Source of the DNA: Phenylobacterium sp.
GTDB taxonomy: Bacteria > Pseudomonadota > Alphaproteobacteria > Caulobacterales > Caulobacteraceae
Reading direction: 5' to 3'
DNA length: 64,000 nt
Assembly (NCBI RefSeq): GCF_019636135.1
Contig: NZ_JAHBYD010000021.1
Span: 12,166 to 76,165, forward strand
The position numbers and the translations under genes are program-made. Below, one piece after another: positions 12,430 through 40,316 of the stretch (the first letter of the stretch is position 1; every line of letters starts with the position of its first letter). Under the pieces are notes generated by a model. It was not told where the DNA came from and did not search any database. It saw nothing but the letters and a program-made list of their open reading frames with translations.

Positions 12430-13710
12430 CTACTCCGCAGCGGCGGCGGGCGGCGCGTTGCGGGTCGTGAAGGCGCGCCAGTCGGCGTCCCTGGGAACCA
12501 GGCCCTCGAACGAGGCCAGGTGGGCGTGCGGCGTCCCGCCCGCGGCGGCGCCGATCGCCGGCTCGCCCGCCAGCACCGCCTTGGCGGCGGCCACCATCTG
12601 GCGGCGGAACTGGATGATCGCCCCGTCGCTCGATCCCAGGTGGTCGGCGCTGCGGTCGGCAATGGGGCCCATGCTCTCCCACATGGCCATGTCCTGCGCG
12701 GGGATGCCGACGATGCCGGTGAAGTCGCCGGCCTTCATCGCCTCGCGGTCCTGCAGAAAGTTGTTCGAGAGGTTGCGCGCCTTGCGCCAGTCGGCGTCGA
12801 GGTCCACGCCCGGCTCGGCGGCGCAGAAGCGGCGCCAGGCGTCCTGCGAGATGCCCTTCGTCGGGTGCCAGGCCATCCAGTAGAACATGCAGTTCACGTC
12901 GTCGATCGGCACCAGCATCTGGGCCAGGTTGTACTGGTCGTTCGGCGGGATGAGCACCGTGAAGGGCGCCACGAACACCGTCGTGCGGATGTAGGCGTGG
13001 GTCTCGGGATCGCGGATCGGCCGGCGGATGGCGGCGTAGTGGAAGCCGTAGTCGGTGGCCTGGACCTCCAGGCGCGGGGCCTTGTCGTTGGAGGGCCGCA
13101 GCCAGGCCGTGTCGGTGGCGGTCGAGCCCTCGACCTCGGCGGTCGGCATGTTGGTCGAATGCAGGCTGGACGAGTGGGCGCTGTCGATCGCGCCCTCCAG
13201 CACCTGCGCCCAGTTGCACGCGGCGTGCATCTTCACGATCGACACCCGGGTGGTGGGCAGCGGCGCCCAGGCCGGCGGCTCGAACGGCCGCATCGCGTCG
13301 GGCTCGCCCAGCCAGGCCCAGACGAAGCCGCCCGCCTCGTGCGTCGGGTAGGCCTTGTGGCGCAGGTTCTTCATGCGGCTGTCCGGCGGCTCGGACGCCA
13401 TGTCGAGAATCTCGCCGTCCACCCCGAACTTCCAGCCGTGGTACAGGCAGCGCAGGCCGCAGTCCTCGTTGCGGCCGAACGCCAGCGAGGCGCCGCGGTG
13501 CGGACAATGCTCGTCCATCACGCCCACGCGGCCCTTCGAGTCGCGGAACACGACCAGGTCCACGCCCAGCAGGCGCGCGCGCTGCGGCGCGCCGTCGGGG
13601 TCGGAAACCTCCTCGCTCATGCACACCGGCAGCCAGTGCTGGCGCATGATCTGCCCCATCGCGGCGTCGCCTTCCACGCGGCAGAGCAGTTCATTGTCGG
13701 CAGGTCTCAT
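12430..13710 (-). CDS. ophA2: Phthalate 4,5-dioxygenase-type Rieske oxygenase subunit
   Basis: N-terminus DNELLCRVEGDAAMGQIMRQHW, Rieske CPHRGAS...CLYHGW, mononuclear iron EGAIDSAHSSSLH and WLRPSNDKAPR closely follow OphA2/Pht3 as I recall it. Confidence 0.85.
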   Translation of the reverse strand: MRPADNELLCRVEGDAAMGQIMRQHWLPVCMSEEVSDPDGAPQRARLLGVDLVVFRDSKGRVGVMDEHCPHRGASLAFGRNEDCGLRCLYHGWKFGVDGEILDMASEPPDSRMKNLRHKAYPTHEAGGFVWAWLGEPDAMRPFEPPAWAPLPTTRVSIVKMHAACNWAQVLEGAIDSAHSSSLHSTNMPTAEVEGSTATDTAWLRPSNDKAPRLEVQATDYGFHYAAIRRPIRDPETHAYIRTTVFVAPFTVLIPPNDQYNLAQMLVPIDDVNCMFYWMAWHPTKGISQDAWRRFCAAEPGVDLDADWRKARNLSNNFLQDREAMKAGDFTGIVGIPAQDMAMWESMGPIADRSADHLGSSDGAIIQFRRQMVAAAKAVLAGEPAIGAAAGGTPHAHLASFEGLVPRDADWRAFTTRNAPPAAAAE

Positions 13711-13728
13711 GGGCGGTTGTCCGATCAG

Positions 13729-13744
13729 ACTTAGATAGCTAAGT
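13729..13744. promoter_or_regulatory. Palindromic operator ACTTAG-N4-CTAAGT (perfect copy)
   Basis: ACTTAGATAGCTAAGT in the divergent ophA2/ophB gap. Confidence 0.75.
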
Positions 13745-13798
13745 ATTTTATGGGCCAGCACGGCGGCTGTCCAGAAGTGGCGCAGGGAGGCGCGCGAC

Positions 13799-14965
13799 AT
13801 GGCCGACCGGGTGCTCCGCTTCGGCGTCGTCGGGCTCAGCCGCGGGTTCGACCTGACGCGGCCGACGCTGGTCGCCGACCCGCGCGTTTCGCTCGTGGCC
13901 GCCGCCGACCTGCGGCCCGAAGCGCGCGCCGCCTTCGCCGCCGAGTTCGCTGCGCCCGCGTACGACGACGCCGCGGCGCTGTGCGCCGATCCGCAGGTCG
14001 AGGTGGTCTACATCGCCACGCCCCACCAGACCCACGCCGACCTCACGGCGCTCGCCGCCCGCCACGGCAAGCACGTGCTGGTGGAGAAGCCGATGGCGCT
14101 GGACCTCGCCGCCTGCCGCGCGATGATCGCGGCGACCGAGGCGGCCGGCGTCCGGCTGGTGGTGGGCCCCAGCCACGGCTTCGATCCGCCCGTCGCGGCG
14201 GCCGCGGCCCTCGTGGGAAGCGAGGCGTTCGGCCCGGCGCGGATGGTGACCGCGGTCACCTTCACCGATTTCCTGTACCGCCCGCGGCGTCCCGAGGAGC
14301 TGGACAGCGCGCGGGGCGGCGGCGTGGTGTTCAGCCAGGCCGTCCACCAGATCGACGTGGTCCGCCGCCTCGTCGGCCGCCCGGTGCGCAGTGTCCGCGC
14401 GGCGACCGGCGCCTGGGACGCGGGCCGGCCGACCGAGGGCGCCTACCAGGCCTTCCTGACCTTCGAGGGCGGCGCCTCGGCGGCGCTGACCTATTCGGGA
14501 TACGGCCGCTACGACACCGACGCGCTGATGGGCTGGGTGGGCGAGACGGGCGGCGCGCGCGATCCCGCCGCCTACGCCACGGCGCGCCGCCGTCTGGACG
14601 GCGCCGACGAGCCGGCGCTGAAGGCCGCGCGCGCCTACGGCGTCGCGGGCGCCGCGACTCCGGCGCCGGTCGGCCACGAACACTTCGGCTTCGTCCTGGT
14701 GGCTTGCGAGCGTGGCGACCTGCGCCTCACCCCCACCGCCGTCGAGGCTTTCGGGCCGGCGGCGCGCTGGACCGTCGACCTGCCGGCCCCGGACGCCACC
14801 CGCCACGCCGTCGTCGACGAGGTGTGGGACGCGGTCGTCGACGGCAAGGCTCCCCTGCACGATGGGGCCTGGGGCGCGGAGAACCTGGCCGTCTGCCTCG
14901 CCATCCTGCGCTCGGCCGCCGAGGGCCGTGAAATCGCCATCGCTGACCTGGAGATTCGCCCATGA
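13799..14965 (+). CDS. ophB: Phthalate cis-4,5-dihydrodiol dehydrogenase-like (Gfo/Idh/MocA)
   Basis: VYIATPHQTH, VEKPMA, FLYRPRRPEELD and HEHFG motifs. Lies between ophA2 and ophC. Confidence 0.8.
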   Translation: MADRVLRFGVVGLSRGFDLTRPTLVADPRVSLVAAADLRPEARAAFAAEFAAPAYDDAAALCADPQVEVVYIATPHQTHADLTALAARHGKHVLVEKPMALDLAACRAMIAATEAAGVRLVVGPSHGFDPPVAAAAALVGSEAFGPARMVTAVTFTDFLYRPRRPEELDSARGGGVVFSQAVHQIDVVRRLVGRPVRSVRAATGAWDAGRPTEGAYQAFLTFEGGASAALTYSGYGRYDTDALMGWVGETGGARDPAAYATARRRLDGADEPALKAARAYGVAGAATPAPVGHEHFGFVLVACERGDLRLTPTAVEAFGPAARWTVDLPAPDATRHAVVDEVWDAVVDGKAPLHDGAWGAENLAVCLAILRSAAEGREIAIADLEIRP

Positions 14966-15954
14966 GCAAGCTGCGCCTGACGCTGGCATGCTGGGACTAC
15001 GACCGCACCCGCGCCCTGGCCGACGGCCGCGTGCAGCCTGAGGGGATCGACCTCAACTTCCTGCCGCTGCACGTCGAGGAGACCTTCTTCCGCATGCTGC
15101 GCAACCGCGAGTTCGACGTCGCCGAGATGTCGCTCTCGTCGTACTGCGTGTCGCTGACCCGGGACGACCCGGCGTTCATCGCTATCCCGGTCTTCCCGTC
15201 CCGGTTCTTCCGCCACTCGTGCATCTTCGTGTCGGCCCGGAGCGGCATCCGCGAGCCGAAGGACCTGGTCGGCAAGCGCTTCGGCGTGCCGGAATACCAG
15301 ATGACCGCGCCGGTCTGGATCCGCGGCATCCTCTCCGACGAGTACGGCGTCGCGCCGACCTCGGTGAAGTATTTCACGGGCGGCGAGGAGGAGCCCGGGC
15401 GCGACGAGAAGCTGAAGCTCAACCTGCCGCCGCAGTTCAGCGTCACGCCGATCGGGCCGACCCAGACGCTGGCGCAGATGCTGGCGGACGGCGAGATCGA
15501 CGCCCTGCACACCGCCCGCACGCCCTCGACGTTCTACTCCCGCCCCGACGACGTGAAGCGGCTGTTCCCCGACTTCGTGCCGGTGGAGAAGGACTACTTC
15601 CGGCGCACCGGCATCTTCCCGATCATGCACGTCGTGGCCATCCGCCGGAGCGTCTACGAGGCCAACCGATGGATCGCCCAGTCGCTGTTCAAGGCGTTCT
15701 GCGAGGCGCAGGCGGTCACCTACGACAACCTGGCGGTCACCTCGGCCATGACGTCGATGCTGCCCTGGCAGGTGGCGGCCGTCGAAGAGGCCCGCGCGGA
15801 ACTCGGCGACGACTGGTGGCCCTACGGCTTCGCCCGGAACCGCAAGGTGCTCGACACCTTCCTGCGCTACCACCACGAGCAGGGCCTGTCGCCGCGCCGC
15901 CTGGAGCCGGAGGCCCTGTTCGCGCCCGAGACCTTCGAAGCGTTCAAGATCTGA
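14962..15954 (+). CDS. ophC: 4,5-dihydroxyphthalate decarboxylase
   Basis: MSKLRLTLACWDYDRT...EETFFRMLRNREFDVAEMSLSSY and TGIFPIMH, the Pht5/OphC signature. Confidence 0.85.
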   Translation: MSKLRLTLACWDYDRTRALADGRVQPEGIDLNFLPLHVEETFFRMLRNREFDVAEMSLSSYCVSLTRDDPAFIAIPVFPSRFFRHSCIFVSARSGIREPKDLVGKRFGVPEYQMTAPVWIRGILSDEYGVAPTSVKYFTGGEEEPGRDEKLKLNLPPQFSVTPIGPTQTLAQMLADGEIDALHTARTPSTFYSRPDDVKRLFPDFVPVEKDYFRRTGIFPIMHVVAIRRSVYEANRWIAQSLFKAFCEAQAVTYDNLAVTSAMTSMLPWQVAAVEEARAELGDDWWPYGFARNRKVLDTFLRYHHEQGLSPRRLEPEALFAPETFEAFKI

Positions 15955-18022: not shown

Positions 18023-18038
18023 ACTTAGATATCGAATG
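18023..18038. promoter_or_regulatory. ACTTAG-N4-CTAAGT operator copy (9/12)
   Basis: (AT)ACTTAGATATCGAATG overlapping the pcaH ATG. Confidence 0.5.
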
Positions 18039-23094: not shown

Positions 23095-23110
23095 AGTTAG
23101 ATGACTAAGT
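23095..23110. promoter_or_regulatory. ACTTAG-N4-CTAAGT operator copy (11/12)
   Basis: AGTTAGATGACTAAGT in the divergent SDR / SnoaL gap. Confidence 0.7.
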
Positions 23111-30199: not shown

Positions 30200-30227
30200 C
30201 CTTAGATGTATAATTAGATTCCTAAGT
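30200..30227. promoter_or_regulatory. Tandem ACTTAG-N4-CTAAGT operator copies upstream of the TBDR
   Basis: AATTAGATTCCTAAGT (30212-30227, 11/12) overlapping CCTTAGATGTATAATT (30200-30215, 9/12). Confidence 0.7.
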
Positions 30228-30289: not shown

Positions 30290-30898
30290 CTATTTTGCCG
30301 TTTCGAGCGGCCGGCTCTCGGCCTTGAAGACCACCGGGCGCGACTTGCGGCCCTCGGCGTCGACCGCCTCGTGCGCCACGTCCTGGGCGGTGAAGCCCGA
30401 GTGGGTCCACGAGGCGAATTCCAGCATCACGCCGTCGGGATCCCAGAAGTAGATCGAGCGGACGAACACGTCGTCGGTCATCTCGGGGCTGACCTGGTTG
30501 GGCGAGTTGTCGTGGTTCAGCACCGGGCCGGTCTTGATGCCCTTGGCCTTCAGCTTCTCGACGTACTCGTCGAACCGCTCGGCCGGGACGTTGAAGGCGA
30601 TGTGGTTCATCGAGCCGTGGGCCGAGCGGATGTCGCCGCCGCCGGGCAGTTGCGCCGGCGCCGCGACGCCCGGGGCGGCCGCGGGCGAGTTCGGGAACCA
30701 GAAGAAGGCCAGCGAGTCGCCGTTGCCGATGTCGAAGAAGAAGTGCTGGCCCATGCCGTTGGGCAGGTCGAGGGTCTTCACCAGCGGCATGCCCAGCACG
30801 TCGCGATAGAACTCGACCGTCTTGGCCATGTCCTTGCAGACCAGCGCCAGGTGGTTCACGCCTCGGATATCGAATTCGTGGTTGATCGGCTGAGCCAT
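30290..30898 (-). CDS. VOC/glyoxalase-family protein
   Basis: GVNHLAL...FYRDVLG, MNHIAF and SIYFWDPDGVMLEF motifs. Confidence 0.85.
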   Translation of the reverse strand: MAQPINHEFDIRGVNHLALVCKDMAKTVEFYRDVLGMPLVKTLDLPNGMGQHFFFDIGNGDSLAFFWFPNSPAAAPGVAAPAQLPGGGDIRSAHGSMNHIAFNVPAERFDEYVEKLKAKGIKTGPVLNHDNSPNQVSPEMTDDVFVRSIYFWDPDGVMLEFASWTHSGFTAQDVAHEAVDAEGRKSRPVVFKAESRPLETAK

Positions 30899-31020: not shown

Positions 31021-31036
31021 GCTTAGGATACTAAGT
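31021..31036. promoter_or_regulatory. ACTTAG-N4-CTAAGT operator copy (11/12)
   Basis: GCTTAGGATACTAAGT directly before the kinase start. Confidence 0.7.
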
Positions 31037-31037
31037 A

Positions 31038-32048
31038 TTGCGTGTGGAGGCCACCCAAGAGATCGTCGAGGCGCTGCGGGCGGGCGGATTCCTGCCGCCC
31101 GGAGCCGAGCCCCGGCTGCGCCCGCTGGCCGGAGGCGTGTCCAGCGACGTGTTCCGCCTCGACCTGCCGGACGGCCCGGTGTGCGTGAAGCGGGCCCTGG
31201 CCAAGCTGCGGGTGGCCGCCGACTGGCGCGCGCCCGTGGAGCGGTCGCACTACGAGGTCGAGTGGCTGAAGGCGGCCCGGGCGTTCGCGGGCGAGGCGGT
31301 GCCGCAGGTGCTCTACGAGGACGAGGCGGCGAACCTTTTCGTGATGAGCTTCTACGACCCCGCCACGCACAGCGTCTGGAAGTCGGACCTGGCGGCGGGC
31401 CGGGTCGACGCGGGCCTCGCGGGCGCGGTGGGGTGGATGGTGGCGGCGATCCACGCGGGCGCGGCCGGCGACCCCGCCGTCGCGGCGCGGTTCCGGACGA
31501 CCGGGATGTTCGAGGATCTGCGCCTGGCCCCGTTCCTGCGCCGCTGCGCCGAGGTCCATCCCGATCTCTCCGGCCGCCTGGTCGCCCTGGCCGACCGCAC
31601 CGCCGCGGCGCGCATCACCCTGGTGCATGGCGACGTCAGCCCGAAGAACATCCTGCATGGCCCGCACGGCCCGGTGCTGCTGGACGCCGAGTGCGCCTGG
31701 TACGGCGACCCGGCCTTCGACCTCGCCTTCTGCTCGGCGCACCTGCTGCTGAAGGCCGTCTGGAAGCCTGCGCACCGGGCGGCCTACCTCGGCGCCTACG
31801 ACGCGTTGCAGCGCGGCTATCTCGCGGGCGTCGACTGGGAGAGCCCGGGCGCGCTCGACGCCCGCGCCGCGCCGCTGACCGCCGCGATCCTGCTGGCGCG
31901 CGTGGACGGCAAGTCGCCCGCCGACTACCTGCAGACCCCGGAGGACAAGGGATTCGTCCGGGGCGTCGCCCGCCGCCTGGTGGCGCAGGAAACGCCGTCG
32001 ATGGCGGCGCTGGCGGGCGCCTGGAAGGAAGCCCTGGAGGCAAGATGA
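31038..32048 (+). CDS. APH/MtnK-like small-molecule kinase
   Basis: GGVSSDV, VKRA, HGDVSPKNIL and LLDAE..WYGDPAFD motifs. The start codon is uncertain. Confidence 0.8.
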   Translation: MRVEATQEIVEALRAGGFLPPGAEPRLRPLAGGVSSDVFRLDLPDGPVCVKRALAKLRVAADWRAPVERSHYEVEWLKAARAFAGEAVPQVLYEDEAANLFVMSFYDPATHSVWKSDLAAGRVDAGLAGAVGWMVAAIHAGAAGDPAVAARFRTTGMFEDLRLAPFLRRCAEVHPDLSGRLVALADRTAAARITLVHGDVSPKNILHGPHGPVLLDAECAWYGDPAFDLAFCSAHLLLKAVWKPAHRAAYLGAYDALQRGYLAGVDWESPGALDARAAPLTAAILLARVDGKSPADYLQTPEDKGFVRGVARRLVAQETPSMAALAGAWKEALEAR

Positions 32049-33346
32049 AGACGACGATCGCCGCCGTGCGCGGACGCCAGGTCTGGGACAGCCGCGGCCG
32101 CCCGACGGTGGAGGCCGAGGTGACGCTGGCCGGCGGCGCCGTGGGCCGCGCGATCGCGCCGGCCGGCGCCTCGCGCGGCGCGCACGAGGCGATCGACCTG
32201 CGCGACGGCGGCGAGCGCTTCGGCGGCATGGGCGTGGGCCGCGCGACGGCGGCGGTGAACGGCGAGATCGCCCGCCTGCTGGCCGGCCGCGACGCCGCCG
32301 ACCAGGCGGGGCTGGACGCGGCGATGGCCGAGGCCGACGGCACGCCGAACCTGGCCCGGCTGGGCGGCAACGCGACCGTGGCCGTCTCGCTGGCGGCGCT
32401 GCATGCCGCGGCCGCCGCCGACGGCCTGCCGCTGTGGGCGCACCTGGCCCAGGGCCGGAAGGTCCGCATCCCGCTGCCCGAGATCCAGATCTTCGGCGGC
32501 GGCGCGCATGCCGGGCGGCGCACCGACGTGCAGGACTTCATGGTCATGTGCCCCCGGGCGGCCACCATCCGCGAGGCGTTCGAGGTCACCGCCGACGTGT
32601 TCCGCGCCGCCGGCCGGCTGATGGAGGAGACCGGCCGTCTCGCCGGCGCCGCCGACGAGGGCGGCTGGTGGCCCGTGTTCGATTCCAACGAGGACGCCCT
32701 GGCCGCGCTGCTCAGGTCCATCGAGATGTCGGGCCACCGGCCGGGCGAGGACGTGTTCATCTCGCTGGACGTGGCGGCCAACGAACTGGACGGCGGCGAC
32801 GGACGATACCGCCTGGGCCTGGACGGCGCCGAATACGGCAGCGAGGCGATGGTCGAGCGCGTGGCCGGATGGGTGCGCCGCTATCCGATCCTCTCCATCG
32901 AGGACCCGGTCAGCCAGGACGACCTCGCGGGCTTCGCCGCCGCCACGCGGCAGTACGGCGAGCGGGTGCAGCTCATCGGCGACGACATCCTGGTCACCAA
33001 CGCCGAGCGCGTGCGCCGCGCCGCGGACGCCGGCGCCGGCAACGCGGTGCTGGTCAAGGTCAACCAGGCCGGCACGGTCAGCCGCGCCAAGGCGGCGCTG
33101 GACGCCTCCAGGGAACTCGGCTGGGCGGCCATCGTCTCCGCCCGTTCCGGCGAGACCGAGGACGTGTCCATCGCCCACCTGGCCACCGGCTGGGACGCGG
33201 GCCAGATCAAGGTCGGCAGCTTCTCGCGCTCGGAGCGGATGGCGAAGTGGAACGAGCTGCTCCGGATCGAGGAGGCCATGGGCGCCGACGCGGCCTTCGC
33301 CGGCCCGTCGGCCTTCGCCGCGTCGGTGGCGGCGGGGTTGGCGTGA
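32045..33346 (+). CDS. Enolase paralog with altered active site
   Basis: DSRGRPTVE, GAS, DEGG, LDVA, IEDP, GDD, KVNQ and KVGS.SRSER motifs, but QDF (canonical QEF) and SARSGET (canonical SHRSGET). Confidence 0.88.
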   Translation: MKTTIAAVRGRQVWDSRGRPTVEAEVTLAGGAVGRAIAPAGASRGAHEAIDLRDGGERFGGMGVGRATAAVNGEIARLLAGRDAADQAGLDAAMAEADGTPNLARLGGNATVAVSLAALHAAAAADGLPLWAHLAQGRKVRIPLPEIQIFGGGAHAGRRTDVQDFMVMCPRAATIREAFEVTADVFRAAGRLMEETGRLAGAADEGGWWPVFDSNEDALAALLRSIEMSGHRPGEDVFISLDVAANELDGGDGRYRLGLDGAEYGSEAMVERVAGWVRRYPILSIEDPVSQDDLAGFAAATRQYGERVQLIGDDILVTNAERVRRAADAGAGNAVLVKVNQAGTVSRAKAALDASRELGWAAIVSARSGETEDVSIAHLATGWDAGQIKVGSFSRSERMAKWNELLRIEEAMGADAAFAGPSAFAASVAAGLA

Positions 33347-34290
33347 AGGCGGTCCTGCACTACCGCGCCAGCGACGGCTTCCGCGCCATGCTGGCCCGCC
33401 ACGCCCGGGCGGCCGGGGTCGAGGCCGTCGTGGTCGACGAGTTCGACGACGCGGCGTTCGCCCGCGAGATCGCCGGCGCCGAGGTCCTGCTGCACGTGCT
33501 GAAGCCGGTGACCGCCGCGATGATCGGCGGCGCCCCCGGCCTGCGGCTGATCCAGAAGCTGGGCGTGGGCGTCAACACCATCGACCTCGACGCCGCCAGG
33601 GCCGCCGGCGTGGCGGTCTCCAACATGCCGGGTACGAACAGCCAGGCGGTGGCCGAGATGGCGCTGGCCCTGATGCTGTCGGTGCTGCGCCGGCTCTCCT
33701 ACCTCGACCCGCTCACCCGCCGGGGCCGGGGCTGGGCGCCCGATCCCGACCTGATCGACGGCGTCGGCGAACTCGCGGGCCGCACCGTGGGGTTCGTGGG
33801 CTACGGCGGCTCGGCCTCGCGGCTGGGCGCGGCGCTGGAGGCTCTGGGCGCGACGGTCATCTACACCGCGCGCAGCGAGAAGCCGGAGCTGATCGGCCGC
33901 TTCGCGCCGCTGGCCCGGGTGCTGGCCGAGGCCGACATCGTCTCGCTCCATCTGCCGCTGACGCCGCAGACCCAGCGGATGATCGACGCCCGCGCCCTGG
34001 CGGCCATGAAGCCGGGCGCCATCCTCATCAACACCGCCCGCGGCGGCCTGGTGGACGAGCCCGCCCTGGTCTCGGCCCTCCGCTCGGGCCGGTTGCGCGG
34101 CGCGGGCCTCGACGTCTTCGATCGGGAGCCGGTCGATCCCGACAATCCGCTGCTGGGCCTGCCCAACGTCGTCGTGGCGCCGCACCAGGCCTGGCTGACG
34201 CCCGAGACGCTGGACCGCAGCCTGGCCGCGGCCTTCGAGAACATCCGCCGCCTGCAGGCCGGCGAGCCGCTGCTGAACCAGGTGGTGTGA
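33343..34290 (+). CDS. D-isomer-specific 2-hydroxyacid dehydrogenase
   Basis: GVGVNTIDL, VGFVGYGGS, SLHLPLT, INTARGGLVDE, LDVF..EP and APHQAW motifs. Confidence 0.9.
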   Translation: MKAVLHYRASDGFRAMLARHARAAGVEAVVVDEFDDAAFAREIAGAEVLLHVLKPVTAAMIGGAPGLRLIQKLGVGVNTIDLDAARAAGVAVSNMPGTNSQAVAEMALALMLSVLRRLSYLDPLTRRGRGWAPDPDLIDGVGELAGRTVGFVGYGGSASRLGAALEALGATVIYTARSEKPELIGRFAPLARVLAEADIVSLHLPLTPQTQRMIDARALAAMKPGAILINTARGGLVDEPALVSALRSGRLRGAGLDVFDREPVDPDNPLLGLPNVVVAPHQAWLTPETLDRSLAAAFENIRRLQAGEPLLNQVV

Positions 34291-34994
34291 TGCGCCCGAG
34301 CGTCGTCTTCGCCACCGGCCAGCTCCTGACCGAGGACTGCTGGGCGCCGCAGGTGGCCGCCCTCGATCCGGACTACGACGTCATCGTCGCCGACCACGGC
34401 CGCGACGACACTATCGCGGGCATGGCGCAGCGGTTGCTCGACGCCGCGCCGCCGCGCTTCCACCTGATCGGCCACGCCATGGGCGGCTTCACGGCCTTCG
34501 AGGTGATGCGCCAGGCGCCGGAGCGGGTGATCAGCCTCGTGCTCATCGCCACGCTGGCGCCCAACGACGGCCCAGCGCAGACCGAGCGGCGGCAGGGCTA
34601 CATCCGGCTGGTCGAGGCCGGGCAGTTCGACCAGGTGGTGGAGGAGCGCGTGCCGATCCTGCTGCCGCCGCGCCGGCGCGAGGACGCGCGGTTGCTGGGG
34701 CTGGTGCGGGGCATGGCCGAGGACACCGGCGCCGAGCGGTTCCTGGGCCAGCAGCGGGCGATCATGAGCCGAATCGACAGCCGCCCGTCGCTGGGCGGCG
34801 TCGAGGTCCCGACCCTGGTGATCCGCGGCGCCGAGGACGGGATCACGACCCAGGCCCACCAGGACGAGATCCTGGCCGGCATCCCGCACGCCCGCTTCGT
34901 CGAGATGCCCGGCGTCGGCCACCTGCCGACCCTGGAAGCGCCGGACGAGACCAACCGCCTGCTGCGGGACTGGCTGGCCGAAGTTCCAGGCTAG
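34290..34994 (+). CDS. Alpha/beta-hydrolase-fold protein with Ala at the nucleophile position
   Basis: Elbow GHAMGG (GGC CAC GCC ATG); GAEDG and GVGHLP retained. Confidence 0.8.
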   Translation: MRPSVVFATGQLLTEDCWAPQVAALDPDYDVIVADHGRDDTIAGMAQRLLDAAPPRFHLIGHAMGGFTAFEVMRQAPERVISLVLIATLAPNDGPAQTERRQGYIRLVEAGQFDQVVEERVPILLPPRRREDARLLGLVRGMAEDTGAERFLGQQRAIMSRIDSRPSLGGVEVPTLVIRGAEDGITTQAHQDEILAGIPHARFVEMPGVGHLPTLEAPDETNRLLRDWLAEVPG

Positions 34995-35179: not shown

Positions 35180-36232
35180 CTAGCCCTGAAGCTCGCGCCG
35201 CACGATGGCGGCGCCGTCGGCCATGGCCTTCAGCTTGCCGAACGCGACCTCGCGGCTCTGGTACTTCATCCCGCAGTCGGGCGCGACGATCAGGCGCTCG
35301 GCGTCGATGTGGGGCAGGGCCTCGCGGATGCGCGCGGCCACGGTCTCGGCGGTCTCGACGTTGGGGTCGTTGAGGTCGATCACCCCGTACATGATGTGCT
35401 TGCTGGGCAGCTCGCGCAGGATCGAAGGGTCCAGCCTGGGCTGCGCCGCCTCGATCGAGATGATGTCGACGTCCGAGGCTTCCAGCTCCTCCAGGAACGC
35501 GTAGCCGCCGGGCTTGGAGGCGCCCTGATGCACATGGGCGTAGCCGAAGCAGATGTGCAGCGCCGTGATCCCGTCCACGCCCTTGCAGGCGCGGTTGATG
35601 GCCTCAATGGCGAAGCTGCGCGCCTCCTCGGCCTTGGCCTGCAGGTAGGGCTCGTCGAGCTGGACGATGTCGCAGCCCGCGGCGAACAGGTCGCGCATCT
35701 CGGCGTTGACGGCGTCGGCGTAGTCCAGGGCCAGCGCCCGCGCGTCGGGATAGTGGTCGTTCTGGGCCTGCTGGGTCATCGTGAACGGGCCCGGGATGGT
35801 GATCTTCACCGGCCCGCCTGCGCGCTGCTTGAGGAAGCCCGCGTCCTGCGCCTCGATGGGGCCGGTGCGGCGGATCCTGCCGGCGACGCGCGGCACGGGG
35901 TTCATCGCGCCGGTGCGGTCCATGGCCATGCCCGGCGGGTCGGTCTCGATCCCGGCCAATGCGGTGGCCAGCCGGTTCGAATAGCTCTCGCGCCGCATCT
36001 CGCCGTCGCCCACGATGTCGATGCCGGCCAGTTTCTGGTCGCTGATCGCCACCAGCGTGGCCGCCTCCTGGGCGTCGGCCAGGTCCTTCGGGTCCTTGAT
36101 GCGCCACAGTTCCTGCGCGCGCACGCGCGGCGGCAGGCGCGACTTCAGGCCCTCCCGGTCGATCAGCCAGTCAGGCTGGGGATAGCTGCCGACGATCGTG
36201 GTCGGAAGCAGGGGCAGGCCCGGAATCGGCAT
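35180..36232 (-). CDS. Cobalamin-independent methionine synthase II-like (MetE C-terminal domain only) Zn enzyme
   Basis: TTIVGSYPQP, DGEMRRESY, VQLDEP and Zn ligands LHICFG and APDCG. Confidence 0.85.
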   Translation of the reverse strand: MPIPGLPLLPTTIVGSYPQPDWLIDREGLKSRLPPRVRAQELWRIKDPKDLADAQEAATLVAISDQKLAGIDIVGDGEMRRESYSNRLATALAGIETDPPGMAMDRTGAMNPVPRVAGRIRRTGPIEAQDAGFLKQRAGGPVKITIPGPFTMTQQAQNDHYPDARALALDYADAVNAEMRDLFAAGCDIVQLDEPYLQAKAEEARSFAIEAINRACKGVDGITALHICFGYAHVHQGASKPGGYAFLEELEASDVDIISIEAAQPRLDPSILRELPSKHIMYGVIDLNDPNVETAETVAARIREALPHIDAERLIVAPDCGMKYQSREVAFGKLKAMADGAAIVRRELQG

Positions 36233-36248: not shown

Positions 36249-36264
36249 AATTAGCATTCTATGT
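36249..36264. promoter_or_regulatory. ACTTAG-N4-CTAAGT operator copy (10/12)
   Basis: AATTAGCATTCTATGT in the divergent MetE-like / MarR gap. Confidence 0.6.
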
Positions 36265-36339: not shown

Positions 36340-36819
36340 ATGAGTGACATCCAGATCTATGCCGACCCCGCGCGCAGCATCGGCTACCTGACCCGGATCG
36401 CGTTCCGGGCGTTCTCCCGGGCCCTGGAGATGCGGACGGCGCCGCACGGCGTCTCCAGCGGCCAGTGGCGGTTCCTGCGGGTGCTGTGGCGCGAGGACGG
36501 CCTGACCCAGCGCGAGCTCAGCCGCCGGGTCGGCATGCGCGAGCCCACCACGGTGATCGCGCTCAAGAGCCTGGAGCGCAGCGGCTTCGTCACCCGCAGC
36601 AAGAGCGTCGAGGACCGGCGCAAGGTCCATGTCTACCTCACCCCTCAGGCCAAGGCGCTGGAGGCCGAGCTGCTGCCGGCCGTGGCCGAGGTGAACCGCG
36701 TCGCGCTGGAGGGCCTCACCCCCGCCGAGGTGGACGTGCTGCGCAAGGCGCTGGTGCAGGTGGGCCGCAACCTGGCCGCCGACGTCCGCGAGGACGTCCC
36801 GATCGACTCCGCCGTCTGA
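36340..36819 (+). CDS. MarR-family transcriptional regulator
   Basis: SIGYLTR...FLRVLWREDGLTQRELSRR...DRRKVHVYLTPQ. Resembles the MarR at 15954. Confidence 0.88.
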   Translation: MSDIQIYADPARSIGYLTRIAFRAFSRALEMRTAPHGVSSGQWRFLRVLWREDGLTQRELSRRVGMREPTTVIALKSLERSGFVTRSKSVEDRRKVHVYLTPQAKALEAELLPAVAEVNRVALEGLTPAEVDVLRKALVQVGRNLAADVREDVPIDSAV

Positions 36820-36848: not shown

Positions 36849-37436
36849 ATGCCCGTCAAACTCCTGGCCCTCTCGGGCAGCACACGCACCGGCTCCCTGA
36901 ACCAGGCCCTGGTCGACCTGGCCGCCGCCGAGGCGCGGGCGCGCGGCGCCGAGGTGACGGCGGTGAACCTGAAGGCGTTCGCCCTGCCGCTCTACGACGG
37001 GGATGTCGAGGCCGGCGCCTTCCCCGAGGCGGCGCGCGAGCTGAAGGCCCTGTTCCGCGCCCACCACGGCTTCCTGATCGCCTCGCCCGAGTACAACGGC
37101 GGCGTCAGCGGCGTGCTGAAGAACGCCATCGACTGGGTCTCGCGGCCGACCGACGGCGAGAACATCGTCGCGCTCAGCGCCTACCGCGGCAAGGTGGCCG
37201 GGCTGATGGGCGCTTCGATCAGCCCCTTCGGCGGCCTGCGCGGCATCACCCAACTGCGCCAGGTCCTGTCGACGATCCAGGTCGTGGTGGCCACCGAGCA
37301 GGTGCTGGTGCCGTTCGCGCAGAACGCCTTCGACGACCGGGGCGCGCTGAAGGAGGCGCTGCCGGCCCAGCTTCTGGGCGGCCTGGTGGCGCGGGTGATC
37401 GACCTGGCCGAGCGGCTGGAGCCGCCTATCGCCTGA
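36849..37436 (+). CDS. NADPH-dependent FMN reductase (ChrR/SsuE-like)
   Basis: LSGSTRTGSLN, SPEYNGG and LKNAIDWVSR motifs. Confidence 0.88.
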   Translation: MPVKLLALSGSTRTGSLNQALVDLAAAEARARGAEVTAVNLKAFALPLYDGDVEAGAFPEAARELKALFRAHHGFLIASPEYNGGVSGVLKNAIDWVSRPTDGENIVALSAYRGKVAGLMGASISPFGGLRGITQLRQVLSTIQVVVATEQVLVPFAQNAFDDRGALKEALPAQLLGGLVARVIDLAERLEPPIA

Positions 37437-39060
37437 GGTTGGGATCGAAGGGCAGCTCGTAGCCGGTCAGGCCCTCGCGCAGCCGCTTCTTGTCGATCTT
37501 GCCCGTCGCGCCCAGCGGGATCTCGTCCACGAACAGCACGTCGTCGGGCATCCACCAGCGCGCGATCTTGCCGTCCAGGAAGTCCAGGAACTCCTGCTTG
37601 CCCGCCTGCTCGCCCGGCTTGAGCTGCACCAGCAGGACCGGCCGCTCGTCCCACTTCGGATGCACCACGCCGATCACCGCGCAGAGCGCCGCCTTCGGGT
37701 GGGCGACGGCGATGTTCTCCACGTCGATCGAGCTGATCCACTCGCCGCCCGACTTGATGACGTCCTTCGCCCGGTCGGTGATCTGCATGTAGCCCTCGGC
37801 GTCGATGGTCGAGACGTCGCCGGTGTCGAAGAAGCCCTCGTCGTCCAGCACCTCGCCGCCCTCGGCGCGGAAGTAGCCGCTGGCGATGGTGGGGCCCTTG
37901 ATCATCAGCCGGCCGAAGGTCCTGCCGTCGTGCGGCAGCCGCCGGCCCGCGTCGTCCACCAGCTTGAGGTCCAGGTTGCAGAGCAGGCGGCCCTGCTTGA
38001 GCTTGTAGGGGAGCTGGTCCTCGAAGCTGCGGCCGGCGATGGCCGGCGAGGGGACCGAGACGGTGGCCAGCGGCGAGGTCTCGGTCATGCCCCAGCCGTG
38101 GATGACGTCGACGCCATAGTCGTCGCGCAGGGTGCGGAAGATCGATTCCGGGCAGGCCGAGCCGCCGACGGTGACGCGCTGGAGCGTGGTCAGCTTGCCC
38201 TTCGTCGCCTTCAGGTGGGCGAGCAGCATCTGCCAGATGGTGGGCACGCCCGCCGAATAGGTGACCCCCTCCGCCTCGATCAGCTCGTGCAGCGAGGCGC
38301 CGTCCAGCTTCTGGCCCGGCAGCACCAGCTTCGCCCCCACCATCGGGGCCGAGTACATCACGCCCCAGGCGTTGGCGTGGTACATCGGCACGATCAGCAG
38401 CACCGTGTCGCGCGCCGACAGGTTCAGGGCGTCGGGCTGCAGCGTCATCATCGCGTGCAGGTAGTTCGAGCGGTGGCCGTACAGCACGCCCTTCGGATTG
38501 CCCGTCGTGCCGGACGTGTAGCAGAGGCCGGCCGCGGCGTTCTCGTCGAACCCGCCCCACGGCGTGTCGGCCGGCCGCCCCGCGATCCACGCCTCGTAGG
38601 CCAGGGCGGGGAAGGGCGTGGGCGGCGCGGCCTCGCTCAGGAACACCACCTGCCGGATCGTCGGGCACTGGGGCAGGATCTCGGCCAGCAGCGGCGCGCA
38701 CGCCGGGTCGGCCAGCAGCACCTCGTCGCCGGCATGGTTGGCGATGTAGACGATCTGCTCGGGGAACAGGCGCGGGTTCAGGGTGTGCAGCACCGCCCCG
38801 ATGCCGATCGCGCCGTACCAGGCCTCCAGGTGGCGGTCGCTGTTCCAGCCCATGGTCGCCACCCGGTCGCCGGGCTTCACGCCGGCTTCGAGCAGGGCGT
38901 GCGACACCTGCTTCGCGCGGCGATGGATGTCGGCGTAGGTGCTGCGCACGACCGGCCCCTCCACCGAGCGGGTGACGATCTCGCGCCCGCCATGCCAGCG
39001 CGCCGCGTGGTCCAGCAGCTTGTCCAGTGTCAGCGACCAGTCCTGCATCAGGGCCTGCAT
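37426..39060 (-). CDS. Medium/long-chain acyl-CoA ligase (AlkK/DmdB-like)
   Basis: CYTSGTTGNPKGVLY, PMYHANAWG, WGMTETSPL, DRAKDVIKSGGEWISS and HPKWDERP motifs. Confidence 0.9.
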   Translation of the reverse strand: MQALMQDWSLTLDKLLDHAARWHGGREIVTRSVEGPVVRSTYADIHRRAKQVSHALLEAGVKPGDRVATMGWNSDRHLEAWYGAIGIGAVLHTLNPRLFPEQIVYIANHAGDEVLLADPACAPLLAEILPQCPTIRQVVFLSEAAPPTPFPALAYEAWIAGRPADTPWGGFDENAAAGLCYTSGTTGNPKGVLYGHRSNYLHAMMTLQPDALNLSARDTVLLIVPMYHANAWGVMYSAPMVGAKLVLPGQKLDGASLHELIEAEGVTYSAGVPTIWQMLLAHLKATKGKLTTLQRVTVGGSACPESIFRTLRDDYGVDVIHGWGMTETSPLATVSVPSPAIAGRSFEDQLPYKLKQGRLLCNLDLKLVDDAGRRLPHDGRTFGRLMIKGPTIASGYFRAEGGEVLDDEGFFDTGDVSTIDAEGYMQITDRAKDVIKSGGEWISSIDVENIAVAHPKAALCAVIGVVHPKWDERPVLLVQLKPGEQAGKQEFLDFLDGKIARWWMPDDVLFVDEIPLGATGKIDKKRLREGLTGYELPFDPNLRR

Positions 39061-39107
39061 TGCCGTCGTGTTCCTCGGCTTCAAGTTCGGGGTGGATCGC
39101 CCATAAT

Positions 39108-39123
39108 GATTAGATTACGAAGT
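39108..39123. promoter_or_regulatory. ACTTAG-N4-CTAAGT operator copy (9/12)
   Basis: GATTAGATTACGAAGT(AT) in the divergent ligase / hydrolase gap. Confidence 0.5.
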
Positions 39124-39179: not shown

Positions 39180-40316
39180 GTGGTGATCGACGACAGCGAC
39201 CTGCTGCAGGGCCTGGACCGGCAGTTCCTGGGATTCATTTCGCCCACGTCTCCCCGCATCCAGGCCGGCGGCCATCCCTGCCAGGGGATCTACACCACGC
39301 CCAGGGGCCAGCGGCCGAAGACCGCCTTCATCGCCACCCACTACAACGTCGACTTCTCCGAGCACTACATCGCGCCCTACATGGCCGCCCGCGGCTACGG
39401 CTTCCTGGGCTGGAACACCCGCTATCGCGGCGCCGAGGACCAGTTCCTGCTGGAGCACGCGGTGATCGACATCGGCGTCGGCGTCCGCTGGCTGAAGGAG
39501 CAGGCCGGCGTCGAGACGGTGGTGATCCTGGGCAACTCCGGCGGCGGCTCGCTGATGGGCGCCTACCAGGCCGAGGCCATCGCGCCCACCCTGGGCGACC
39601 TCCTGAGCGGGCCGGGGCTCGAGGCGCTGAACACGCTTCCCAGGGCCGACCTCTACGTCTCGTTCAACGCCCACCAGGGGCGGCCCGAGGTGCTGACCGA
39701 CTGGATGGACGCCTCGGTGGTCGACGAGTTCGATCCCGTCGCCACCGACGAGAGCCTGAACCCGTTCAATCCCGACAACGGCCCGCCGTATTCGCCGGAG
39801 TTCATCGCCCGCTACCGCGCCGCCCAGCGGGCGCGGAACCAGCGCATCACCGACTGGGCCAAGGCCGAGCTCGCCCGCCTCAACGCCGCCGGCATCCCCG
39901 ACCGGCTGTTCCCGCTGTTCCGCTGCTGGGGCGACCTGCGGATGATGGACGGCGCGATCGACCCCTCCGAGCGCCGGACGCCGATGTGCTACCGCGGCCA
40001 TCCGGCCGTGGCGAACCGCTCCCCGTCGATCGGCCGCGCCAACAACCTGAAGACCTGGCTGTCGATGTGGAGCCTGGAGACGTCGAAGTGCCAGGGCGCC
40101 GAGCAACTGGCCAAGTTCGACATGCCGTGCCTGGTGGTCCAGGGCCTGGCCGACACCGGCGTCTTCCCCAGCGACGCGCAGAAGATCTTCGACAACGTCG
40201 GCTCGGCCGACAAGGAACTCCACCTCATCAAGGGCGCCCACTACTTCGAGGACAGCCGCGAGGAACGCGAAGCCGCCGCAAGCCTCCTCTGCGACTGGGT
40301 GGCGAAGAAACGCTGA
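39180..40316 (+). CDS. Alpha/beta hydrolase
   Basis: GNSGGG nucleophile elbow, ADTGVF and GAHYF motifs. Confidence 0.8.
   Translation: MVIDDSDLLQGLDRQFLGFISPTSPRIQAGGHPCQGIYTTPRGQRPKTAFIATHYNVDFSEHYIAPYMAARGYGFLGWNTRYRGAEDQFLLEHAVIDIGVGVRWLKEQAGVETVVILGNSGGGSLMGAYQAEAIAPTLGDLLSGPGLEALNTLPRADLYVSFNAHQGRPEVLTDWMDASVVDEFDPVATDESLNPFNPDNGPPYSPEFIARYRAAQRARNQRITDWAKAELARLNAAGIPDRLFPLFRCWGDLRMMDGAIDPSERRTPMCYRGHPAVANRSPSIGRANNLKTWLSMWSLETSKCQGAEQLAKFDMPCLVVQGLADTGVFPSDAQKIFDNVGSADKELHLIKGAHYFEDSREEREAAASLLCDWVAKKR

Follow-up and report, generated by a model that had tools for sequence, protein, structure and literature searches.

A widely conserved kinase/variant enolase pair in a four-gene operon of Phenylobacterium and its possible role in a route from D-2-hydroxy acids to enol phosphates

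Results and discussion

We analysed a 64,000-nucleotide stretch of DNA from Phenylobacterium sp. (the window) and found four translationally coupled genes, which encode an APH/MtnK-like kinase, an enolase paralog, a D-2-hydroxyacid dehydrogenase and an alpha/beta-fold protein. The enolase belongs to a separate clade in which the active site is altered on the C3 side, and this variant lies directly downstream of the kinase gene in most of the loci that we compared. Judging from these sequence features, we propose that the operon specifies a three-step route built on the widely conserved kinase/variant enolase pair, and that the substrate or its C3 leaving group differs from the CH2OH of 2-phosphoglycerate, a proposal for which we consider the chances about even. 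The original prediction had described the kinase, the active-site-altered enolase and the dehydrogenase as a possible phospho-dehydration pathway; its observation was confirmed and its interpretation was partly supported.

Organization of the operon

The gene bounds were obtained from GC3 frame analysis together with the ORF calls. The first gene (31038..32048, + strand, starting with TTG at 31038 or GTG at 31044) encodes a small-molecule kinase of the APH fold that resembles MtnK, and it shares an ATGA overlap with the gene of the variant enolase paralog (32045..33346, + strand, 433 aa). The enolase gene is joined by a GTGA overlap to that of a D-isomer-specific 2-hydroxyacid dehydrogenase (33343..34290, + strand, 315 aa), the stop codon of which is overlapped by the gene of a PcaD-like alpha/beta-fold protein (34287/34290..34994, + strand, 235 aa). 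The overlaps and the coupling of the first three ORFs are as originally described, although the fourth coupled gene (34287-34994) had been left out of that description.

The variant enolase and its clade

The window enolase has both the Enolase_N and the Enolase_C domains of Pfam and scores 454.7 bits against TIGR01060, above the family cut-off of 300. A housekeeping enolase, which has Glu168 and His373 and scores 658.7 bits with the same model, is encoded elsewhere in the genome (contig C12), and the two proteins are 44% identical. The window enolase is thus a distinct paralog and not the glycolytic copy, as had been supposed. Compared with glycolytic enolases (EC 4.2.1.11; TIGR01060; PF03952 and PF00113; PDB 4yws, 1e9i and 1ebg), the variant belongs to the same two-domain fold family at 40-47% identity and shares with them the three Mg ligands (D246, E295 and D320), the base Lys345, the acid Glu211, Lys396, Arg374/Ser375, Ser39, His159 and Gln167 (yeast numbering), which are conserved in 97-100% of the 86 members of the variant clade. 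The substitutions in the window enolase are E168D, H373A, N155G, G209A, A215W and T397V, and position 155 is Gly or Ser in the clade. At the motif level, QEF is changed to QDF, SHRSGET to SARSGET and NIxNGG to QIFGGG. Alignment to the solved enolases and column statistics thus bore out both the retained metal-binding, acid/base and phosphate-binding motifs and the altered ones that had been read from the sequence, and the column statistics showed that six otherwise invariant enolase positions change together in the clade.

Glu168 and His373, on the C3-hydroxyl side, were found in 64 of 64 canonical enolase representatives, whereas Asp and Ala, as in the window enolase, occupy these positions in all of the full-length kinase-adjacent enolases (51/51). 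The substitutions are therefore not common in housekeeping enolases, a point on which the original prediction could have failed, and they are not due to chance; such a pattern implies selection for a different task. A single bipartition with support of 1.0 contained 85 of the 86 Asp168/Ala373 sequences and no Glu168/His373 sequence. The window enolase carries the signature, falls in this clade and has the APH-fold kinase gene directly upstream. The QDF/SAR residues thus mark out a clade that is found together with this kinase, a point raised in the original prediction. The changes in the clade lie on the leaving-group side and introduce small or hydrophobic residues (W215, V397, A373 and A209), with no newly conserved cationic residue; at position 40, no more than roughly a third of the clade has Arg or Lys.

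The kinase and its linkage to the enolase

The kinase matched Pfam APH (4.4e-15) and is unrelated to glycerate kinases of class I and class II, in agreement with the predicted non-homologous kinase of the APH/MtnK fold. The best-matching characterised family is 5-methylthioribose kinase (MtnK), although the score with TIGR01767 was only 56.3 bits, well below the equivalog cut-off of 275, and the PDB matches to MtnK (2olc and 2pyw) were weak. In the family alignment A1, which has 41 invariant columns, and in the alignment to 2pyw, we identified an HGDVSPKN catalytic loop and an LLDAE sequence in which DAE corresponds to DXE. The HGD loop and the DXE motif, which we take to be the defining motifs of MtnK, are thus shared, as is the following G-x-x-FD segment. 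Unlike MtnK, the conserved partner of this kinase is an enolase, and no methionine-salvage partner (mtnA etc.) was seen in the gene annotations of the window and of the fetched loci.

When adjacency was counted by tblastn in 75 kinase-seeded loci from other species of diverse phyla, the variant enolase lay directly downstream of the kinase in 68. The kinase had at least 587 species-level genome matches, the pair was found in hundreds of species, with Bosea sp. BH3, Neoroseomonas terrae and Caulobacter mirabilis as cultured strains among the hits, and three proteins (P0126, P0170 and P0124) were APH-enolase fusions. Among 121 Caulobacteraceae genomes, 12 encode the variant enolase as an accessory gene in addition to a normal enolase, and the kinase was present in all 12, including the cases where the two genes are unlinked. 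In two genera of this family the kinase occurs with no variant enolase at all; these kinases are nested within the enolase-linked ones, so that the kinase product can be handled otherwise, possibly by the ordinary enolase. The prediction of a complex between the kinase and the enolase gave a score of 0.00, which speaks neither for nor against binding. A search of sequencing runs returned DNA runs with only a small share and no RNA run. In the literature searched, we came across no paper describing an enolase paralog coupled to a kinase.

The dehydrogenase and the fourth protein

The dehydrogenase matched 2-Hacid_dh_C (6.2e-53), with the catalytic and NAD-binding domains of 2-Hacid_dh both present (179 and 88 bits), and fell below every NCBIfam equivalog cut-off. 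Its nearest types are glycerate dehydrogenase and glyoxylate-hydroxypyruvate reductase, with 5tx7, 2cuk and 1wwk as PDB neighbours. An ortholog was found in 30 of the 75 kinase loci (about 40%), close to the pair in 29, and one listed product of 633 aa, encoded upstream of the variant enolase P0145, has both 2-Hacid_dh and APH domains. The trio had originally been regarded as a unit, whereas these counts place the conserved core in the kinase-enolase pair. Neighbourhood clustering of 92 loci showed no other partner in more than 14 of them; the remaining neighbours, such as FGGY kinase, EamA transporter, PdxH, GMC oxidoreductase, IclR and thioesterase, are each restricted to certain lineages, so that genomic context alone does not name the substrate, and at many loci the pair stands without a catabolic context.

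The fourth protein matched Abhydrolase models but scored only 84 bits against the TIGR02427 cut-off of 256. Instead of the G-x-S-x-G elbow of serine hydrolases it has GHAMGG, in which the nucleophilic Ser is replaced by Ala, and (G/A)HA(M/L)GG was present in all seven orthologs in which the region was read. Among the loci examined, the fourth gene was seen only in Caulobacterales and in one MAG labelled Rhizobium.

A possible route and its alternatives

We infer each enzymatic step of the route, and their order, as follows. The dehydrogenase would interconvert a 2-oxo acid and a D-2-hydroxy acid, and the MtnK-like APH-fold kinase would phosphorylate the 2-hydroxyl. The variant enolase would then hold the 2-phospho-carboxylate on two Mg ions, while Lys345 would abstract the proton from C2 and the substituent at C3 would be expelled with the help of Glu211, so that the end product may be PEP or a 3-substituted PEP analogue from which ADP can be phosphorylated. 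The module appears to be extended in this lineage by the nucleophile-less alpha/beta-fold protein and to lie behind a palindromic operator of the MarR type that it has in common with a phthalate/protocatechuate island. The substrate is probably a D-2-hydroxy acid, and not only glycerate. The remodelling on the C3 side (E168D, H373A, N155G/S, A215W and T397V) points to a substrate or leaving group that is not the CH2OH of 2-phosphoglycerate, and since no conserved cationic residue has been gained in the C3 pocket, the C3 group is probably neutral; a C4-C6 2,3-dihydroxy acid and a beta-thioether or beta-alkoxy lactate are candidate substrates. The pocket need not be larger, as A215W may just refill the space left by H373A. 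Anionic C3 groups (2,3-bisphosphoglycerate, sulfolactate and tartrate) are disfavoured by the lack of a conserved extra Arg or Lys.

The same logic is found in the hydroxypyruvate reductase/glycerate 2-kinase/enolase segment of the serine cycle and of the glyoxylate, tartrate and non-phosphorylative Entner-Doudoroff pathways, in which a D-2-hydroxyacid dehydrogenase, 2-O-phosphorylation and elimination to an enol phosphate follow one another and the enzyme classes of two of the three steps are shared with the operon. The operon differs from this segment in that the kinase is of the APH/MtnK fold, the enolase is a dedicated variant, and, of 40 genomes with the pair, 38 also encode a canonical glycerate kinase (a MOFRL kinase in 36 and an intact class I kinase in two more). 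Phosphorylate-then-eliminate pairs are known in levulinate catabolism (LvaA/LvaC) and in ACAD10/11, where an APH-fold kinase is likewise linked, by genetic coupling or by fusion, to the enzyme using its phosphorylated product. In those systems an acyl-CoA dehydrogenase is the partner and it is the phosphate that leaves, whereas here the partner is an enolase with its phosphate-binding residues kept, so that the product most likely retains the phosphate.

The glycerate-yielding contexts, the glycerate/hydroxypyruvate type of the dehydrogenase, the kinase-only genera and the genome without class I or II glycerate kinases tell against a substrate other than glycerate. They could be accommodated by a plain glycerate branch, in which a hydroxypyruvate reductase, a new (fourth) class of D-glycerate 2-kinase represented by the APH-fold enzyme, and an enolase converting 2-phosphoglycerate to PEP would provide the dedicated final steps of serine-cycle, glyoxylate or sugar-acid catabolism; we regard this as possible but distinctly less probable than the route above. 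The nearest models and structures of the dehydrogenase agree with it, as does the lack of any match to class I (PF02595) or class II (MOFRL, PF05161) glycerate kinases in this genome. The pair also recurs in sugar-acid clusters (lactonase, UxuA or MR_MLE dehydratases, FAA hydrolase and PEP carboxylase) and beside a beta-hydroxyacid dehydrogenase resembling tartronate semialdehyde reductase; a product usable by the housekeeping enolase would suit the kinase-only lineages, and the variant enolase is still above the TIGR01060 cut-off. However, a dedicated enolase would be unnecessary if the product were 2-phosphoglycerate, and the replacement of both Glu168 and His373 in all 51 of the kinase-adjacent enolases is not expected on this explanation. 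The canonical glycerate kinases found in 38 of the 40 genomes also argue that the pair is not simply a missing glycerate kinase, and they rule out non-orthologous displacement as a general explanation. Together with the strict conservation of Asp168/Ala373, they favour a substrate other than glycerate, while the kinase-only lineages and the contexts with sugar-acid or tartronate semialdehyde reductase-like genes keep glycerate in play.

The leaving group might instead be a thiol, thioether or alkoxide, expelled from a 2-phospho-3-substituted lactate to give PEP, with a methylthio- or cysteine-conjugate-derived acid as the substrate in this lineage. The small and hydrophobic changes on the leaving-group side, with no new conserved cation, would suit such a group; the nearest characterised relatives of the kinase bind a methylthio sugar, and the neighbours include a MetE-like protein, a CoA ligase near 3-(methylthio)propionyl-CoA ligase and a GST, with an MTHFR-like gene adjoining the kinase in genus g9. 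These resemblances are all at the family level, however, and such neighbours are confined to Caulobacteraceae, the pair standing alone or in sugar-acid clusters elsewhere without a consistently linked sulfur-handling gene, and we consider this explanation improbable. Even less probable is a crippled enolase with a non-catalytic or regulatory role, or a pair that serves metabolite repair or biosynthesis and not catabolism. Glu168 mutants of the yeast enzyme lose most of their activity, and many pair loci are without catabolic context, but the metal, base, acid and phosphate-binding residues are near-completely conserved across a deep clade, and the translational coupling and fusion to the kinase argue for consecutive reactions.

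We tentatively suggest, with less confidence than for the three-step route itself, that the pair, frequently with the dehydrogenase, represents an undescribed and widespread 'phospho-dehydration' route to enol phosphates from non-glycerate D-2,3-dihydroxy acids or beta-thio/alkoxy lactates; tetronates, 4-deoxy-tetronates, aldonates and branched-chain dihydroxy acids would be the candidates among the dihydroxy acids. If so, the route would be an alternative to the conventional sugar-acid and dihydroxy-acid dehydratases in which the ATP spent would return at a pyruvate-kinase-like step, and it would give the otherwise mono-functional enolase family a second physiological reaction. The SFLD description shows the enolase subgroup with the enolase family only; a deep clade that is coupled to a kinase and remodelled around the leaving group would add a second function to this subgroup. 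Because the clade enolases exceed the family cut-off, they are named phosphopyruvate hydratase in public records, and in hundreds of bacteria from soil and water the metabolic reconstructions consequently carry a false 'second enolase' and miss the kinase.

The operator and the neighbouring genes

The palindromic operator CTTAGGATACTAAG (31022..31035), an exact CTTAG-N4-CTAAG, precedes the start codon of the kinase gene by 2-8 bases. Three exact matches to this motif were found in the window against 0.06 expected, and the motif is seen again at seven further sites between genes of the aromatic-acid island. In loci L009, L016, L017 and L018 the operator is retained at the corresponding position ahead of the kinase gene, and a second site about 0.8 kb from it is likewise conserved; in the window, two overlapping operator-like sites (30201..30226) lie upstream of a TonB-dependent receptor gene. 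The shared operator of the original prediction was thus upheld, whereas its tie between the trio and the substrate of the island was overstated, since the link is local co-regulation only. A MarR-family regulator gene (36340..36819, + strand; Pfam MarR) has an operator-like site with two mismatches (36250-36263) in its divergent promoter, and its product is the candidate protein for binding to the operator. By way of this conserved MarR-type operator, the inducer could be identified independently.

A gene that diverges from the kinase operon encodes a VOC/glyoxalase-family protein (30290..30898, - strand; Pfam Glyoxalase, 7.8e-19), and VOC genes also adjoin the kinase gene or the enolase gene in L004, L007-L010, L015-L018, L097 and L101. 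The gene of the MetE-like (Meth_synt_2) protein (35180..36232, - strand; 9.2e-35) is syntenic with the operon in Caulobacterales (L004, L008, L009, L010, L016 and L017). Farther downstream, an acyl-CoA ligase of the PRK06018 subfamily (37426..39084, - strand; 856 bits, cut-off 766), for which 3-(methylthio)propionyl-CoA ligase was the second-best model, has an operator-like site (39109-39122) in its divergent promoter. The following alpha/beta hydrolase of 378 aa with a GNSGG nucleophile elbow (39180..40316, + strand) immediately precedes the kinase in other genera, and the gene order in L008 and L010 is hydrolase-kinase-enolase-dehydrogenase-hydrolase. A GST is also among the local neighbours of the operon.

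Operon structure and the variant enolase

Gene placement by third-position GC and ORF analysis in the window (70% G+C), together with domain and family assignments from Pfam and NCBIfam, gave an operon of four co-directional genes. Proteins of the window have close homologues labelled as Phenylobacterium (Caulobacteraceae). The first encodes an APH-fold, MtnK-like kinase (31038/31044-32048), and is followed by genes for an enolase-family protein (32045-33346, with an ATGA overlap with the kinase gene), a D-2-hydroxyacid dehydrogenase (33343-34290, with a GTGA overlap with the enolase gene) and an alpha/beta-fold protein (34287/34290-34994), the start of which overlaps the stop of the dehydrogenase gene. 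The first three are the ORFs of the original prediction and are genuine, although the trio that it proposed left out the fourth member, and the conserved unit is the kinase-enolase pair.

The same genome has a second, normal enolase on another contig, which scored 658.7 bits with TIGR01060 versus 454 for the operon copy, and the two proteins are 44% identical. The operon enolase is a paralog carrying a specific residue pattern, with Asp and Ala in place of the canonical Glu168 and His373 (yeast numbering), and alignment to solved enolases bore out every motif originally named. We aligned 173 enolases, consisting of kinase-adjacent enolases of other genomes and the 150 best-matching representatives of 50%-identity clusters. 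Positions 168 and 373 co-varied (86 Asp/Ala and 64 Glu/His sequences, with few intermediates), and one tree bipartition with support of 1.0 contained 85 of the 86 Asp/Ala sequences and none of the Glu/His sequences. Six positions, and no others, combined a conservation of 85% or more among canonical enolases with a different residue in the clade (N155 to G/S, E168 to D, a Leu to Ala, G209 to A, A215 to W and H373 to A), and T397 to V was an additional common change. The Mg ligands, K345, E211, K396, R374, S375, S39, H159 and Q167 were retained in 97-100% of the clade. The variant has the profile of an active enzyme, in which two-metal binding of a 2-phospho-carboxylate and removal of the alpha-proton would be retained, and its C3 (leaving-group) side is remodelled towards small or hydrophobic residues; the clade alignment contained no conserved new cation on that side. 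Public records label these proteins phosphopyruvate hydratase.

Distribution of the kinase-enolase pair

A profile built from nine kinases and run on a one-genome-per-species collection matched at least 587 loci, and the taxa among the matches listed were Alpha-, Beta- and Gammaproteobacteria, Acidobacteria, Chloroflexi, Actinomycetes and Methylomirabilales. The variant enolase lay immediately 3' of the kinase in 68 of the best 75 of these loci with downstream room, and all 51 full-length kinase-adjacent enolases had the Asp/Ala pattern. The QDF/SAR form marks a clade that co-occurs with the kinase, which was a check proposed with the original prediction. Metagenomic deep members of the clade likewise showed the kinase-enolase arrangement. 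Furthermore, P0126 (770 aa), P0170 (745 aa) and P0124 are APH-enolase fusion proteins. The start of the variant enolase P0145, on a metagenome contig, is overlapped by a listed 633-aa product in which 2-Hacid_dh, 2-Hacid_dh_C and APH domains are combined; going by its listing, this would be a dehydrogenase-kinase fusion. The fusion proteins and this listed product tie the kinase, enolase and dehydrogenase activities together.

Among 121 sampled Caulobacteraceae genomes, 12 have the variant enolase, and all 12 have the kinase, including those in which the two genes are far apart. The variant enolases of this family share 63-100% identity, with a clean gap to the housekeeping copies (at most 47%). 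We found no study of the pair in the literature. The original observation was confirmed, and its interpretation was partly supported. The pair is a genuine variation on the glycerate-kinase/enolase logic that is widespread and, so far, uncharacterised.

Possible substrates

Whether the pair acts on a glycerate analogue, or a compound with a different beta-substituent, is in our estimate an even question. Plain glycerate is a rather unlikely substrate, although the dehydrogenase resembles glycerate dehydrogenase and glyoxylate reductase types, and some pair loci are found within sugar-acid clusters, next to a gene resembling that for tartronate semialdehyde reductase, or in the neighbourhood of PEP carboxylase. 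A dedicated enolase for 2-phosphoglycerate would have no point, and the Asp/Ala pattern is as strictly conserved within the clade as Glu/His is outside. In the genome holding the window (99.95% completeness), neither class I (PF02595) nor class II (MOFRL) glycerate kinase had a match, which would fit plain glycerate; the Caulobacter vibrioides control genome likewise had none. Against plain glycerate, a class II glycerate kinase occurs in 36 of 40 pair-bearing genomes and a class I enzyme in 2 more, and the same counts rule out the pair as a general glycerate kinase replacement.

Also in favour of plain glycerate, two Caulobacteraceae genera keep the kinase ortholog (L096 8468-9439, L099 8933-9937, L097 8585-9595 and L098 8782-9732, in the coordinates of each locus) without the variant enolase, and these kinases nest among enolase-linked ones. 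In one genus, the operon encodes a hydrolase, an MTHFR-like protein, a D-2-hydroxyacid dehydrogenase, the kinase, CMD, a beta-hydroxyacid dehydrogenase and an ABC transporter; in the other, an EcKL-like second APH kinase is followed by the kinase and the 378-aa hydrolase, and in L097 a VOC protein comes next.

Neighbouring genes

A dehydrogenase ortholog was present at 30 of the 75 kinase loci, close to the pair in 29, and the neighbourhood comparison across loci revealed no other widely recurring neighbour. Caulobacterales-specific neighbours were the 378-aa hydrolase, the 235-aa alpha/beta-fold protein, a MetE-like protein, MarR, a VOC protein and an MFS transporter, joined in the window by a CoA ligase. 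The 235-aa protein (34287-34994) is PcaD-like and has Ala for the nucleophile Ser (GHAMGG), as do all seven orthologs in which the region was read; orthologs are found at L004, L008, L009, L010, L016 and L017. Because of this Ala it would not be a serine hydrolase; it is probably not a hydrolase, and may be a lyase, a decarboxylase or a non-catalytic partner.

Methionine/C1-type families recur around the kinase in Caulobacteraceae, namely a short MetE-like protein (35180-36232), the MTHFR-like protein (L096 10420-11289) and the CoA ligase (37426-39084), which has 3-(methylthio)propionyl-CoA ligase as its second-best model. The nearest relative of the kinase is MtnK. These features may be coincidence or may hint at a methylthio-type substrate. 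At locus L106, a kinase/variant-enolase/SDR unit comes after a lactonase, an ABC transporter, UxuA and a GntR regulator, 4 kb from a PEP carboxylase gene (13178-15775).

A shared operator in the window

The palindrome CTTAGGATACTAAG (31022-35) stops a few bases 5' of the kinase start. Exact CTTAG-N(2-18)-CTAAG matches numbered three in the window versus 0.06 expected, and with two mismatches allowed there were ten. Eight of these fall within intergenic promoter regions of the phthalate/protocatechuate island (13-40 kb). Sites of the CTTAG-N4-CTAAG family lie in seven such regions (13730-13743, 18024-18037, 23096-23109, 30201-30226, 31022-35, 36250-63 and 39109-22), the fourth holding two overlapping sites upstream of a TonB-dependent receptor gene. 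Four related genomes conserve the site next to the kinase as well as a second one about 0.8 kb from it. The site counts, promoter positions and conservation indicate that the shared operator proposed earlier is real. The genes 3' of the sites are phthalate dioxygenase genes (ophA2/ophB), pca genes, a SnoaL gene, the TonB-dependent receptor gene, the kinase operon, a MetE-like/MarR pair and a CoA ligase/hydrolase pair, which suggests one MarR-type regulon over all of them; we infer that a MarR-family regulator binds the palindrome. The co-regulation with the aromatic island is local and does not belong to the pair in general. In another genus, a similar site also precedes a variant enolase that stands alone.
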